A stretch of 64,000 nt of DNA. It comes from a virus. The stretch lies in IMG/VR virus record IMGVR_UViG_3300045199_000074. One strand, given 5' to 3'. The notes below the pieces were generated by a model. It had not been told where the DNA came from. It was given only the letters and a program-made list of their open reading frames with translations, and searched no databases. Below, piece by piece: positions 13,293 to 40,784 of this stretch. A program made the translations under genes and the position numbers. Position 1 is the first letter of the stretch. Each line of letters starts with the position of its first letter.

Positions 13293-13367
13293 TGGTGCTG
13301 CAGGAGAGAATTGAACTCTCGACTTCCTCCTTACCAAGGAGGTACTCTACCACTGAGTTACTGCAGC
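13293..13367 (-). tRNA. tRNA-Thr(GGT)
   Basis: cloverleaf; CCTCC-TT-GGT-AA-GGAGG; encoded CCA. Confidence 0.97.
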
Positions 13368-13395
13368 AATACGATATTGATGGAAACGATGTTTT

Positions 13396-13471
13396 TGGTG
13401 GCAGTAGATAGGATTGAACTATCGACCTACGGCTTATGAGTCCGCCGCTCTCCCAACTGAGCTATACTGCC
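13396..13471 (-). tRNA. tRNA(CAT), elongator Met or Ile2
   Basis: cloverleaf with G1-C72 pair; CT-CAT-AA loop; CCA; Met versus lysidine-Ile not resolvable by eye. Confidence 0.9.
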
Positions 13472-13485
13472 AAAACTATGGTAAC

Positions 13486-13560
13486 TGGTGTCAATGGGAG
13501 GACTTGAACCTCCGACCACACGCTTATCAAGCGCGTGCTCTACCGCTGAGCTACACTGAC
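13486..13560 (-). tRNA. tRNA-Ile(GAT)
   Basis: CGCGC-TT-GAT-AA-GCGTG; CCA. Confidence 0.96.
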
Positions 13561-13568
13561 ATTTATTC

Positions 13569-13643
13569 TGGTGCGTGCAGGAAGGCTTGAACTTCCGACC
13601 TCTCCGTTATCAGCGGAGTGCTCTACCTCTGAGCTATACGCGC
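13569..13643 (-). tRNA. tRNA-Ile(GAT)
   Basis: CTCCG-CT-GAT-AA-CGGAG; CCA. Confidence 0.95.
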
Positions 13644-13667
13644 AAACTGTTAAACTATTAAATTGTT

Positions 13668-13742
13668 TGGTGGGTTCGGCAAGGATCGAACTTGCGGCCT
13701 TCGCCATGTCAAGGCGACGTTCTACCACTAAACTACGAACCC
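13668..13742 (-). tRNA. tRNA-Val(GAC)
   Basis: TCGCC-TT-GAC-AT-GGCGA; CCA. Confidence 0.97.
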
Positions 13743-13746
13743 GAAT

Positions 13747-13917
13747 TGGCCTGCCGAGCGGGATTTGCACCAAGAGCCACCACAGCTCCTTTTTCGCTAC
13801 CTTCCACCCAACTGACCATTTGATGATCTCGCTGCCCTTGGTTGAAGGGCTAGATTTCATCGGCCGAGTTCCTCACGGAATCCTCTGGTGGCTGCCCATC
13901 GATTGGGCCTTCGGCAG
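13747..13917 (-). ncRNA. 171-nt tRNA-like RNA with a large structured insert in place of the anticodon loop
   Basis: acceptor CTGCCGA/TCGGCAG + G + CCA; D-like arm GCCC-N7-GGGC; stem GCCACCA/TGGTGGC enclosing ~100 nt; T-like loop GG-TGCAAAT-CC with a weak stem. Confidence 0.6.
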
Positions 13918-13961
13918 TTACTGTTGCGAGATCGCCAATTCAGGCGCTTCATCGCGGAATT

Positions 13962-14037
13962 TGGTGGAGCCAAGCGTGATCGAACCGCTGACCTCTTGCA
14001 TGCCATGCAAGCGCTCTCCCAACTGAGCTATGGCCCC
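13962..14037 (-). tRNA. tRNA-Ala(GGC) with T-stem mismatch (G53-A61)
   Basis: GGGGCCA acceptor with G3:U70; AT-GGC-AT loop; T arm AGCGG-TTCGATC-ACGCT; CCA. Confidence 0.9.
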
Positions 14038-14049
14038 ATATGAGTTAAT

Positions 14050-14155
14050 GACTTTACCGCCGTGCAGGAATCGAACCTACCTTGGAACCGACAGGCCGCG
14101 CCCAGGTCCTCTTATGGATTCACACCACCCAGTTGGAGCATCCGGCAGTAAAGTC
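14050..14155 (-). ncRNA. tRNA-like element lacking CCA, extended closing stem (pseudo-tRNA or mimic)
   Basis: GACTTTACTGCCG/CGGCGGTAAAGTC closing stem; intact T arm GTAGG-TTCGATT-CCTGC; no canonical anticodon arm. Confidence 0.5.
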
Positions 14156-14202
14156 TCCGACGCATTCGCGCATCGGGATGATCGTTGACCGTGATGCCGA
14201 AG

Positions 14203-38422: not shown

Positions 38423-38450
38423 CACGAAAAAGGGCGCTCATAGCGCCCTT

Positions 38451-38909
38451 TCACTTTAGTGCTGGTGTCGTGTTGAATTGATTGAGAAGCCCTTGAGCGA
38501 TGATTTTCGCATCCTCTAGTTCCATATCGGTGTAGGGCGCAAGCGGGCGGTCAAATTCCAAATCATTTTCATCGTCCACATAGATTTGGATTAATTCTGC
38601 AGCCGATGCCAATGTGTCCTCTGAATAGAATTGGATATGCAGCCAGCTTTCCATTTCGTTCTGGACATCTGCTAATGGTCGACGGCCTCGAATGTCCCAA
38701 GCCATTTCGTTATCATCGATACAAAATACGTGGCAGACCGAGGCAATGTAGTTGTCTTCGTCGTCTGGATCTATCCAATGTGGCTCGCCATCGTCGAGGA
38801 TGACGAGCATTTTCCAACCTGTTATCTCATGAATGGCAAGAGCGAGCACATGGCAAGAGCCAGTCGTATAGAGATCGATCTCGGTACTTGTTGCTTCGCT
38901 AAATTCCAT
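38451..38909 (-). CDS. hypothetical protein with Cys-His-Asp triad-like motifs
   Basis: GSCHVLALA, CHVFC, WDIRG. Confidence 0.7.
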   Translation of the reverse strand: MEFSEATSTEIDLYTTGSCHVLALAIHEITGWKMLVILDDGEPHWIDPDDEDNYIASVCHVFCIDDNEMAWDIRGRRPLADVQNEMESWLHIQFYSEDTLASAAELIQIYVDDENDLEFDRPLAPYTDMELEDAKIIAQGLLNQFNTTPALK

Positions 38910-38912
38910 GAG

Positions 38913-40112
38913 TTATCGCCTGCCAAATGTCATTCTTGGAGACGGGCGTTCGAAACTTTCATCGTCGTCAATGCCTCCAGACGAGTTACCATAATTTCTG
39001 CCTGCTGAAGTTGGGGTAGATGGTTCTGGATTTTCAAAACCTCTGCGATCAACACGTTCTGTGTTCATGCGTTTTACAGATTCATCATCAAATAGCTTCA
39101 AAATAGTAGTTGGAGTGTTGCCATAGCCACGTTTGTTAGTTGGTAATCGTTCAATGCTCACAGGATCACGTTTAAAAACAGGAGCCATTGATGAGATGAC
39201 AGGAATGATTTTACCCGTCTTGCCTCCGAATGCCCATTCTTCTTCCATTGAAATAACTACAAGTGAGGGTAGGAAACCAATCTGGTTGCCAATCGCGTAT
39301 TGCGAACTGAAGTTTCCGATTACTGATTTACCTGTTTCATTTCTTGGATTCACGTCTTTGATCACTTGCTCCTTACCCATTTGCAATGACCAGGCGGGTA
39401 TTATTTCAAGCAAGTAGTCCGAAGCAGGTGTAACTCCGGCATGATTTAGATCATCGATAAGATGATCAATAGTCTTTTCATGGGTATGGAAAAACGTTTC
39501 TGTCTGCCCGTGGCTATCACGAATAAAAAATCCTGGGTTCCCTCCAGGCCAACGTTCACTTTTGATACGATCAAAAGCTACACGAAGCCCTTCTTCAGAA
39601 TTAACAACCATCGCTTTAGCGCCATCTGTAATAATTCCGGACTGCAAAGCACCTTTTTTATTCACGTTAGCTTTAGTCGGCCGCGTCATCGCGGTCATTA
39701 CCTGTACTTCTCCAAGAAGTTTGTCGTGGACACGCGCAACCACAGCACCGACCATTACCTTATTATTTTCTACATAGCTGCGGTCAAATCCTATTACATC
39801 GCCTTTTATGGCAGAAGAAATCCATTCATTGCCAGCAATTGCTGTTTTTAGTGAATTACGATCTGAAATATGACCTGTTGCTTGTTTCAAAGCAATTTTT
39901 TGCCCTGCCTTAAGCCCGTATGCATCAACAAGAAGGTGGCCTTTTATTTCATCGCTGCCAATAACTTCATCTATGGTCACAAAAACTGGCAATCCAACAG
40001 CGAGTTTTTCCTTACTTTTTTCAACAGCCGAGTTAAATGCGGCTTCACCACTCGCTCGAAGGCTAAATCCATTAGGTCTTTTAGAATTTGATAAGACCAT
40101 AATATTCTCCAA
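38913..40112 (-). CDS. hypothetical protein
   Basis: 399-aa ORF; disordered C-terminal tail. Confidence 0.8.
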   Translation of the reverse strand: MENIMVLSNSKRPNGFSLRASGEAAFNSAVEKSKEKLAVGLPVFVTIDEVIGSDEIKGHLLVDAYGLKAGQKIALKQATGHISDRNSLKTAIAGNEWISSAIKGDVIGFDRSYVENNKVMVGAVVARVHDKLLGEVQVMTAMTRPTKANVNKKGALQSGIITDGAKAMVVNSEEGLRVAFDRIKSERWPGGNPGFFIRDSHGQTETFFHTHEKTIDHLIDDLNHAGVTPASDYLLEIIPAWSLQMGKEQVIKDVNPRNETGKSVIGNFSSQYAIGNQIGFLPSLVVISMEEEWAFGGKTGKIIPVISSMAPVFKRDPVSIERLPTNKRGYGNTPTTILKLFDDESVKRMNTERVDRRGFENPEPSTPTSAGRNYGNSSGGIDDDESFERPSPRMTFGRR

Positions 40113-40168
40113 ATATTAATTTGGGGAATTGTTTCATTTTTTAATGCATAAATCTAATCGGCGGAAGA

Positions 40169-40245
40169 TGGAAGACGCATTCGGGATTGAACCGAAGACC
40201 TGCGGTTTAAGAGACCGCCGCTCTAACCTGCTGAGCTATACGTCC
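40169..40245 (-). tRNA. tRNA-Lys(CTT)
   Basis: GCGGT-CT-CTT-AA-ACCGC; U73; CCA. Confidence 0.94.
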
Positions 40246-40259
40246 ATAGTGAGAACAAT

Positions 40260-40337
40260 TGGTGAACGCGGTGGGATTCGAACCCACGTAGACAGGGATT
40301 AAAAGTCCCTCGCTAAAACCTACTCAGCTACGCGTCC
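40260..40337 (-). tRNA. tRNA-Lys(TTT)
   Basis: AGGGA-CT-TTT-AA-TCCCT; CCA. Confidence 0.95.
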
Positions 40338-40350
40338 ATTTGATAATCTT

Positions 40351-40418
40351 AATATGACATATCTAAATATCGTCGTCAACATTAAAAATAAAGAATATGT
40401 AATTATTTCAATGTGTTA
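40351..40418 (-). promoter_or_regulatory. internal promoter of tRNA cluster 3 with upstream motif
   Basis: TTGACG(40379-40374)-17 nt-CATATT with TG extension; TAA-N4-TTGAAA at 40418-40406. Confidence 0.65.
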
Positions 40419-40503
40419 GAATTACAGGCAAGCAAAACTGTGGCGCTAAATACGGCGCTTATAACGAATAGTAATTAGGTTTTATTTCTTGGCACTGCGC
40501 AAT

Positions 40504-40530
40504 AAAAAGGCCGCGAGGACATCGCGGCTC
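40504..40530 (-). terminator. attenuator terminator of tRNA cluster 3
   Basis: GCCGCGA-TGTCC-TCGCGGC-CTTTTT. Confidence 0.8.
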
Positions 40531-40554
40531 ACAAAGAGTACGAATATCCTTCTG

Positions 40555-40608
40555 CTAGGATGCGCAGTGCTGTGGTTTTCGTTTAAGTGCAGTCATAAAA
40601 GTTGACAT
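40555..40608 (-). CDS. putative attenuator leader peptide MSTFMTALKRKPQHCAS
   Basis: SD AAGGA; AAA CGA AAA block; followed by alternative 1:2, 2:3 and 3:4 stems. Confidence 0.7.
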   Translation of the reverse strand: MSTFMTALKRKPQHCAS

Positions 40609-40784
40609 TGTAATTTCCTTGTATTTTCAGAATTACCCATACCCGATCTATTCGGGCTAAACAAGCGCATCTTATTCATTATTTCATGTAAAAATCTGAT
40701 CTAATTATTCTCTCCTTATTAAATTTCGTTGCGGAATACGATATGTCGAGCCATCATAAATTGAATTAATCAGGAGCAAAAGCA

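Follow-up and report, generated by a model that had tools for sequence, protein, structure and literature searches.

Amino-acid operons such as trp, his, leu, thr and ilvGMEDA, as well as pheST, are preceded by short translated leaders whose clustered control codons govern passage through an intrinsic terminator, whereas in T-box riboswitches the RNA pairs directly with a tRNA; our searches did not confirm a reported occurrence of T-boxes in front of tRNA genes. Phages counter anticodon nucleases with tRNAs and RNA repair enzymes of their own, and we know of no demand-sensing control of such sets. The mechanism of leader attenuation in amino-acid operons has been described (PMC1183508), ribosome-dependent attenuation works at trpE(G) of S. 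meliloti, which belongs to the host group considered here (PMC6614838, PMC7968998), and the trn array on a large Anabaena plasmid stays silent until translation is impaired (PMC8421152, PMC10272220). Here, we analyse a window of 64,000 nucleotides, by which we mean the whole stretch of DNA in IMG/VR virus record IMGVR_UViG_3300045199_000074, that is part of an alphaproteobacterial megaplasmid family, and we show that each of its three tRNA clusters lies behind a short open reading frame (ORF) and a terminator. This layout is conserved, the codons of the ORFs match the tRNAs behind them, and leaders and clusters co-vary between relatives. The feature is real and well supported; for its function, we infer that the units are likely ribosome-dependent attenuators, predicted to raise transcription of a tRNA group when the codons of that group are decoded slowly.

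ARAGORN finds 19 tRNA genes in the window, all on the minus strand and sorted by amino acid into three clusters, and Rfam finds the same 19. All three clusters share a common layout in which a short ORF is followed by a hairpin with a U-run, a TTGAC promoter-like site and the tRNAs. A first-pass annotation, made from the letters alone, had described the same order of short ORF, terminator, internal promoter and tRNAs for all three clusters, and had read the leaders as rich in A/V/G/I/N/T/M (leader 1) or as containing EERREED (leader 2) and KRK (leader 3); tRNA calls, ORF coordinates and folds agree with this description, and the leaders are conserved across family members. The parts are as follows.

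13293-15649, minus strand: tRNA cluster 1, 14 genes, Asn, Val (two), Gly (two), Ala (two), Met(CAT) (four), Ile (two) and Thr (ARAGORN, Rfam)
16234-16260, minus strand: promoter-like site P1 of leader 1, TTGACA, 15-nt spacer, TATAAT
16066-16188, minus strand: leader ORF 1, 40 amino acids, 30/39 codons cognate, z 4.4
16090-16101, minus strand: predicted antiterminator 5' strand inside leader 1, pairing with the terminator 5' arm in the fold, duplex -17.5 kcal/mol
16002-16039, minus strand: intrinsic terminator 1, stem 16010-16039 and U-run, -25.4 kcal/mol
23211-23437, minus strand: tRNA cluster 2, Glu(CTC), Asp and Glu(TTC) (ARAGORN, Rfam)
23908-23913, minus strand: P1 -35 box of leader 2
23797-23862, minus strand: leader ORF 2, 21 amino acids, control block EERREED, z 1.6
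23714-23739, minus strand: terminator 2, stem 23722-23739 and U-run, -13.5 kcal/mol, with alternative hairpins 5' of it
40169-40337, minus strand: tRNA cluster 3, Lys(TTT) and Lys(CTT) (ARAGORN, Rfam)
40638-40664, minus strand: weak P1 candidate of leader 3, no TTGAC, similar spacing by eye in the closest relative
40555-40608, minus strand: leader ORF 3, 17 amino acids, control block KRK (AAA CGA AAA), z 1.2
40504-40528, minus strand: terminator 3, stem 40510-40528 and U-run, -12.9 kcal/mol

Each leader is a short ORF with a start codon and a ribosome-binding site behind a promoter, the Lys promoter being weak and the Shine-Dalgarno (SD) sequence of the cluster-1 leaders distant. In 13 of the 14 cluster-1 family members TTGAC is found 62-74 nt 5' of the leader start. 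The predicted control region of leader 1 spans codons 2-27, 21 of these 26 being cognate and together covering all seven amino acids of the cluster; its three Thr codons are all ACC, which is decoded by the tRNA-Thr(GGT) of the cluster. Among the Asp/Glu leaders an acidic block of four to five Asp or Glu residues is kept in 8/8 members while the N-terminal half varies, and LKRK is kept in all three members of the Lys leader family. Family-wide, the SD of cluster-1 leaders is located about 12-14 nt 5' of the start codon (16189-16210 in the window), further than usual.

That the leader codons track the cluster, as the first-pass annotation had claimed, stands by way of the relatives and not of the window, where the true pairing of leaders and clusters is the best of six; the window alone cannot prove a codon match because only six pairings are possible. 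The statistical weight comes from the relatives, with leaders 2 and 3 individually weak. The closest of these is a 1.19-Mb contig of Mesorhizobium sp. SP-1A (G001:C2; 88% identity). We listed tRNAs on five relatives (among the matches listed, 150 of 190) and then fetched the surrounding regions. Among the matches listed, G001:C2 has seven multi-tRNA clusters (N/V/G/A/M/I/T, D/E, K, F/R, S/Q, Y/L/P/H/S and W/T/C/R), and pRlX5 has the same seven cluster types plus a Gln/Gln pair. The seven clusters of each of these two complete relatives together cover the 20 amino acids, and a short ORF and a terminator are present 5' of all 14. The four cluster types that lie outside the window (Phe/Arg, Ser/Gln, Tyr/Leu/Pro/His and Trp/Thr/Cys/Arg) all have matching leaders, with blocks that include RRRF, QSSQQQSSQSSSSSS, LPHLPHLLPLPYL and TRTTWTCWRT. 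In the permutation test that the annotation had called for, leader ORFs were picked by a caller blind to amino-acid content, and neither single tRNAs nor the Gln/Gln pair of pRlX5, for which there is no matching leader, were included. The true pairing ranks 2/5040 in G001:C2 and 1/5040 in pRlX5 with blind picks that include one wrong ORF and one over-long start, and 1/5040 in both after these picks are corrected; the two replicons are not independent trials because they are related.

A wider sample of 80 metagenome loci, 17 of them with tRNAs, gives the same picture. Upstream DNA of 800 nt is available for 21 multi-tRNA clusters; 17 of these have a matching leader according to the blind caller, and the leaders of the other four (one D/E unit and three nearly identical Y/L/C/S units) were recognised by eye. 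After removal of five near-duplicate loci, 39 curated leaders are left; in 38 every amino acid of the cluster is present in the leader, and in 37 the annotated frame is the one with most cognate residues. The control codons are thus cognate to the function that they would control. As a chromosomal control, 13 of 38 tRNA loci of G001 give a leader call and none is a genuine match. One of these calls, a Pro-rich ORF at a chromosomal tRNA-Pro, was rejected since it is located about 420 nt upstream and antisense within a protein gene.

Leaders and clusters also change together. At locus L114 Lys tRNAs and Lys codons have both been added to the cluster 1 unit, the Lys unit of pRlX5 has gained an Arg(CCT) tRNA together with an AGG codon, a Bosea F/R unit combines an Arg(TCT) tRNA with an AGA codon in the leader, Bosea RAC05 has a merged Ser/Leu/Val/His/Pro/Tyr cluster with an equally merged leader, and at L085 Tyr, Leu, Cys and Ser are found in both leader and cluster. 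The match extends to isoacceptors: those for Thr and Arg are divided between clusters, and the leader codons follow. With homologous leaders included, leaders of Thr(GGT) clusters have 28 ACC/ACT versus 6 ACA/ACG codons and those of Thr(CGT/TGT) clusters 2 versus 9, and AGR codons for Arg number 5/7 where Arg(TCT) lies versus 2/16 in F/R leaders; in the genes of the window ACC/ACT make up 228 of 498 Thr codons. Ser and Leu leader blocks use four to six different codons. Apart from these changes, inserted coding DNA splits tRNA-Thr from cluster 1 at two loci (L046:7690-8339 and L047:11570-12224), where the Thr codons of the leader are retained, and the Ser cluster of the Bosea ANAM02 plasmid (L004:10057-10857) has a long spacer with repeated hairpins that resemble tRNA-Ser(TGA) anticodon arms.

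A Variovorax plasmid shows a related arrangement. A 64-codon ORF behind a near-consensus promoter is found 5' of its main tRNA array and contains 18 amino acids, lacking exactly Asp and Glu, and these two amino acids have their tRNAs in a cluster of their own, with a leader rich in D/E/R. Two of 2362 stop-free 63-mers match the make-up of this ORF, and both may be the ORF itself. Neither of the two Variovorax ORFs examined has an SD or a U-tailed terminator; therefore the switch there, if any, must differ.

How could translation of the leader be coupled to transcription of the tRNAs? An intrinsic terminator separates leader and tRNAs; none was seen in the two Variovorax units or in the Bosea Trp/Cys unit. 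In the last (L003:14892-15044), the leader has CW codons and a hairpin without U-run is located directly 5' of the tRNA. In the alignment of 14 terminator 1 sequences, 94.8% of the cells are paired and 4/11 pairs have changes on both sides, a covariation score reached by 0/500 shuffles. Folding of leader 1 predicts an antiterminator helix between the 3' part of the leader and the terminator 5' arm, in which arm CCCUUCUG pairs with leader CAGAAGGG in the window and in L005, and arm CCCUCC or CCCUCU with leader GGAGGG in nine other cluster-1 members. To model the switch we set a ribosome on every codon in turn and folded the nascent RNA as far as the terminator loop; such equilibrium folds of incomplete transcripts are a rough proxy for kinetics. 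In these folds the arm is sequestered with the ribosome on the control block and freed within a few codons after it in 14/14 cluster-1 leaders, and the arm is likewise freed within a few codons past the control block in 12/12 F/R, S/Q, L/P/H/Y, S/L, Y/L/C/S and W/T/C/R leaders. An exclusive antiterminator in register is thus predicted for the cluster-1 family and six other leader groups. The antiterminator segments of the D/E and K families are located 3' of the stop codon.

These folds suggest the following mechanism. The codons of each leader correspond to the amino acids that the downstream tRNAs carry. The antiterminator would stay free with a ribosome on the control block but not with one past it; slow decoding of the control codons would therefore let the antiterminator form and transcription run on into the tRNA cluster. 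The signal would be how much charged tRNA of each kind is available for use, and the plasmid family would have up to seven negative-feedback loops that cover all 20 amino acids. In the three clusters of the window, read-through would add to, or modulate, the output of an internal promoter that resembles those of rRNA operons (rrn).

Several observations weigh against this reading. The switch is predicted in just 4/8 Asp/Glu leaders, the 3/3 Lys leaders switch only at the last one or two positions, and in both W/T/C/R leaders the arm is recaptured as the ribosome reaches later codons. Once the hairpin is complete, the terminator wins at equilibrium at almost every ribosome position, so that the model depends on folding kinetics that are only approximated. 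Fixed columns of the antiterminator are 66% paired, compared to 73% when slid by one, as the register slips, and just 6/18 leaders pair better in the antiterminator with their native codons than with 95% of synonymous recodings. Not all clusters have a matching leader: none is found at the Gln/Gln pair of pRlX5, at the Ala/Val/Ala trio of the AM1 megaplasmid (none was accepted at its three loci), at the Acidiphilium array or at a Lys/Lys/Arg group in L085/L087, where 442 nt were available. At Acidiphilium a 73-codon ORF with all 20 amino acids, about 1.3 kb 5' of the array, was not accepted as it has no terminator. The counts above include homologous leaders and are not independent. In addition, the window Lys leader lacks AAG despite the tRNA-Lys(CTT) in its cluster, the Lys and Asp/Glu control blocks contain Arg codons although the corresponding clusters of the window have no Arg tRNA, and ACC is also the codon used by the thr leader of E. 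coli (PMC1183508). Together with the codon match and the co-variation, the folds nonetheless favour the attenuator interpretation, which came through the refutation tests that could be made at the sequence level.

What would such units respond to in vivo? A possible reading, slightly less likely than not, is an isoacceptor-resolved monitor of the host tRNA pool, in which the leaders test all 20 amino acids and switch on whichever tRNA group is short, together with tRNA repair enzymes, as a direct negative feedback and an inducible counter to tRNA-destroying toxins or defence systems. We are less sure of tRNA loss as the selective reason, rather than amino-acid starvation or demand, than of the switch itself; the isoacceptor match and the repair genes speak for it. 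It is doubtful that the same switch serves another purpose, reporting amino-acid starvation or translation stress, with extra tRNAs that aid recovery or plasmid expression and replace nothing. Any such leader must, however, respond to uncharged tRNA (PMC1183508), and the Anabaena plasmid array is induced by antibiotics that target translation (PMC8421152, PMC10272220). Host tRNAs lend this alternative further weight: in 38 comparisons the differences are mostly in the anticodon stem and not in the loop, where positions 32, 37 and 38 differ 8, 4 and 7 times versus 16-19 times for most stem positions, so that the anticodon loops give no sign of nuclease escape in this set. In the closest relative, the compared plasmid anticodons occur on the chromosome too, except three Leu types outside the fetched host loci. 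On the other hand, extra tRNA presumably cannot make up for an amino acid that is missing. Genes for CCA-adding, RNA-ligase and Thg1 enzymes are present between the clusters, and the leaders use many synonymous codons that track the isoacceptors of their own cluster, whereas amino-acid operon leaders prefer one starvation-sensitive codon (PMC1183508). Cluster 1 has three initiator-like tRNA-Met genes (14203-14279, 14478-14555 and 14705-14779) with different anticodon arms, two of them with loop bases changed compared to the host type. In its long spacers (13745-13960, 14040-14200 and 14285-14475) there are T-loop-like motifs and hairpins that neither ARAGORN nor Rfam calls as tRNA and that may be decayed tRNA genes or some other structured RNA.

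The repair genes that bear on the tRNA-loss reading are the following.

23984-25150, plus strand: CCA-adding enzyme / poly(A) polymerase family gene (PF01743, PF12627), start codon taken from the sequence, divergent from leader 2
29196-31562, minus strand: kinase-phosphoesterase-RNA ligase fusion, a likely RNA repair enzyme (AAA_33, Metallophos, RNA_lig_T4_1)
31712-32539, plus strand: Thg1-family guanylyltransferase (PF04446)

An AAA-family gene and an RNA ligase gene are also found just 5' of the Ser/Leu cluster in two Bosea plasmids (L003:1929-3862 and L004:6994-9022), and the Bosea ANAM02 plasmid additionally encodes an RNA 2'-phosphotransferase.

The first-pass annotation had cautioned that internal promoters downstream of the terminators may give basal expression. 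This is real for the three clusters of the window and does not extend to three other cluster types. The features concerned are given below; the IHF-like sites, the boxA-like motif and the second short ORFs 3' of terminators 1 and 2 go beyond what the annotation had described.

15829-15873, minus strand: IHF-like site (15861-15873) and -35 box (15829-15834) of internal promoter P2, cluster 1
23516-23560, minus strand: IHF-like site (23548-23560) and P2 -35 box (23516-23521), cluster 2
40374-40418, minus strand: IHF-like site (40406-40418) and P2 -35 box (40374-40379), cluster 3
15748-15759, minus strand: boxA-like antitermination motif, cluster 1, 12 bases identical to the rRNA-leader motif of the chromosome of the closest relative
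15923-15982, minus strand: second short ORF, cluster 1, starting MDDDGNG, start region kept in 13/14 family members and stop position free
23614-23667, minus strand: second short ORF, cluster 2, Asp/Glu-rich with strong SD, present in 8/8 family members

The internal promoter resembles the host rRNA promoter and is present in the three units of the window and in F/R units, its IHF-like sites being recognised by the IHF consensus; boxA acts in antitermination. A second ORF is found 3' of the terminator in 13/14 cluster-1, 8/8 D/E, 3/3 F/R and 0/3 K units. Only its first 6-12 codons are kept, which are rich in D/E or R/F or begin DDDGNG. A GAC repeat common to these ORFs is read as Asp in two families and as Arg in the third, and may therefore matter as RNA. 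In the closest relative, a CRISPR-like array of about five short repeats is located directly 3' of a boxA-like motif (L125, at about 96 kb of G001:C2).

The net effect in the window's own units depends on this promoter. We consider it unlikely that in the window most of the tRNA comes from the internal promoter while leader read-through acts indirectly, by clearing a silencer from this promoter or by interfering with it, with tuning by the second ORF and a net induction that could be small or of either sign. In favour of such a role, all three window clusters have, 3' of the terminator, a promoter of rrn type together with an IHF-like site, and the second ORF is almost confined to promoter-bearing units and starts 95-126 nt 5' of the IHF-like site. 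The window also encodes a MucR/Ros-family regulator (10797-11450), presumably a silencer and as such a candidate for acting on the AT-rich internal promoters. The Lys units, however, have the promoter and no second ORF, and by eye the folds contain no second U-tailed terminator between second ORF and promoter. Moreover, no internal promoter with an IHF-like site was found in S/Q, W/T/C/R, L/P/H/Y, S/L or Y/L/C/S units, and in the S/Q and W/T/C/R units the U-run begins 9-20 nt 5' of the first tRNA. In units without an internal promoter, as in the Ser/Gln, Trp/Thr/Cys/Arg and Leu/Pro/His/Tyr clusters of relatives, the attenuator would thus be the only gate.

It is very improbable that the leader transcripts always end at the terminator and act in trans, as independent small RNAs or peptides, without gating the tRNAs: the full terminator does dominate equilibrium folds, and the S. 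meliloti attenuator RNA rnTrpL reportedly acts in trans, but codons that track cluster content and isoacceptors across lineages, and clusters that lack any other promoter, would be left unexplained. Chance, for which the calls at control loci and the six pairings of the window could speak, or a T-box-like element that pairs directly with tRNA can practically be dismissed, as the permutation results in two replicons and the frame specificity contradict both and no T-box match is found in the units at the Rfam gathering threshold or up to E 5.

The identity of the element follows from its gene content and relatives, which point to a giant, plasmid-like replicon. The window contains replication and nucleotide genes and a type II/IV secretion ATPase. 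The protein of the gene adjoining cluster 1, used as a marker, matches nine plasmid records of 0.27-1.3 Mb from Rhizobium, Methylorubrum, Bosea, Acidiphilium and Variovorax, all non-mobilizable according to MOB-suite; cultured carriers are R. leguminosarum TP16, two Bosea strains and Variovorax SRS16. Neither the marker gene nor the terminator pattern was found in the phage records and viral contigs searched. The marker is present in three further carriers among the genomes searched, 401 from the order and 400 from the family, and the tRNA lists of these carriers show no array. When four genomes were searched by terminator pattern for a chromosomal ancestor, the plasmid copy and a single unrelated site were the only matches, and among the best 30 of 1149 blastn matches of unit 1 to plasmids the leader-terminator part is matched only in pRlX5, the rest being tRNA. 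Sequencing runs that contain DNA of the window carry the label ant metagenome. Contigs from three RNA runs and one DNA run span 28-30 of the 30 bins of 11500-25500, which, as these are assembled contigs, is uninformative on transcription. In an SbcC-like ATPase (17388-19601) the N-terminal ATPase motif is found midway along the ORF, at residues 238-363, which suggests that the gene order is permuted; a phosphoesterase gene adjoins it.

It is a long-standing question why tRNA genes are carried by plasmids and phages. If a sensor precedes each cluster, it would tell what the element responds to and make this question testable: each leader would be a natural reporter of one tRNA group, so that starvation, nuclease attack and codon demand could be separated by synonymous swaps. 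The leaders could also help to assign functions to tRNA genes or serve as compact sensors of tRNA availability, and attenuation would be extended from the supply of amino acids to that of the adaptor itself. In the full-text literature, with subscription journals mostly outside its scope, we found no description of leader-peptide control of tRNA genes, and PMC8421152 contains no occurrence of 'attenuat', 'leader' or 'T-box'.

Among known systems, phage anti-nuclease sets likewise bring together surplus tRNAs and genes of the kinase/ligase, CCA and Thg1 types within a mobile element. T-box riboswitches share with our proposal that read-through is set by the state of the cognate tRNA; codons in frame behind a start codon that vary synonymously point to the ribosome, and not a T-box, as the reader. 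The Anabaena trn operon (L-array) also has supernumerary tRNA genes on a large plasmid, but forms one operon under the DNA-binding repressor TrcR, whereas we propose control in cis for each amino-acid group (PMC8421152, PMC10272220). The S. meliloti trpE(G) attenuator with rnTrpL/peTrpL differs in that it has one amino acid and a biosynthetic output (PMC6614838, PMC7968998).

In conclusion, the closest match is to the amino-acid operon leaders (trp, his, leu, thr, ilvGMEDA and pheST), which like the units described here have a short ORF, clustered control codons, an intrinsic terminator and an antiterminator that overlaps the 3' end of the leader or the region behind it; the thr and ilv leaders also read several amino acids each. 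Leader 1 gives a weak full-length match to the Rfam Thr_leader (21 bits versus a cut-off of 55), and with this score and tRNA as output the units fall outside the catalogued Thr, Trp, His, Leu and Phe leaders. Amino-acid operon leaders control enzymes, whereas the units here would control tRNAs, with leaders that span as many as seven amino acids, a variety of synonymous codons that fit the isoacceptors, in some units a second ORF and an internal rrn-like promoter, and a leader set that divides all 20 amino acids on one mobile replicon. Judged from sequence, the megaplasmid units may thus represent a known mechanism, multivalent attenuation of the thr/ilv kind, with a new kind of output, the tRNA.

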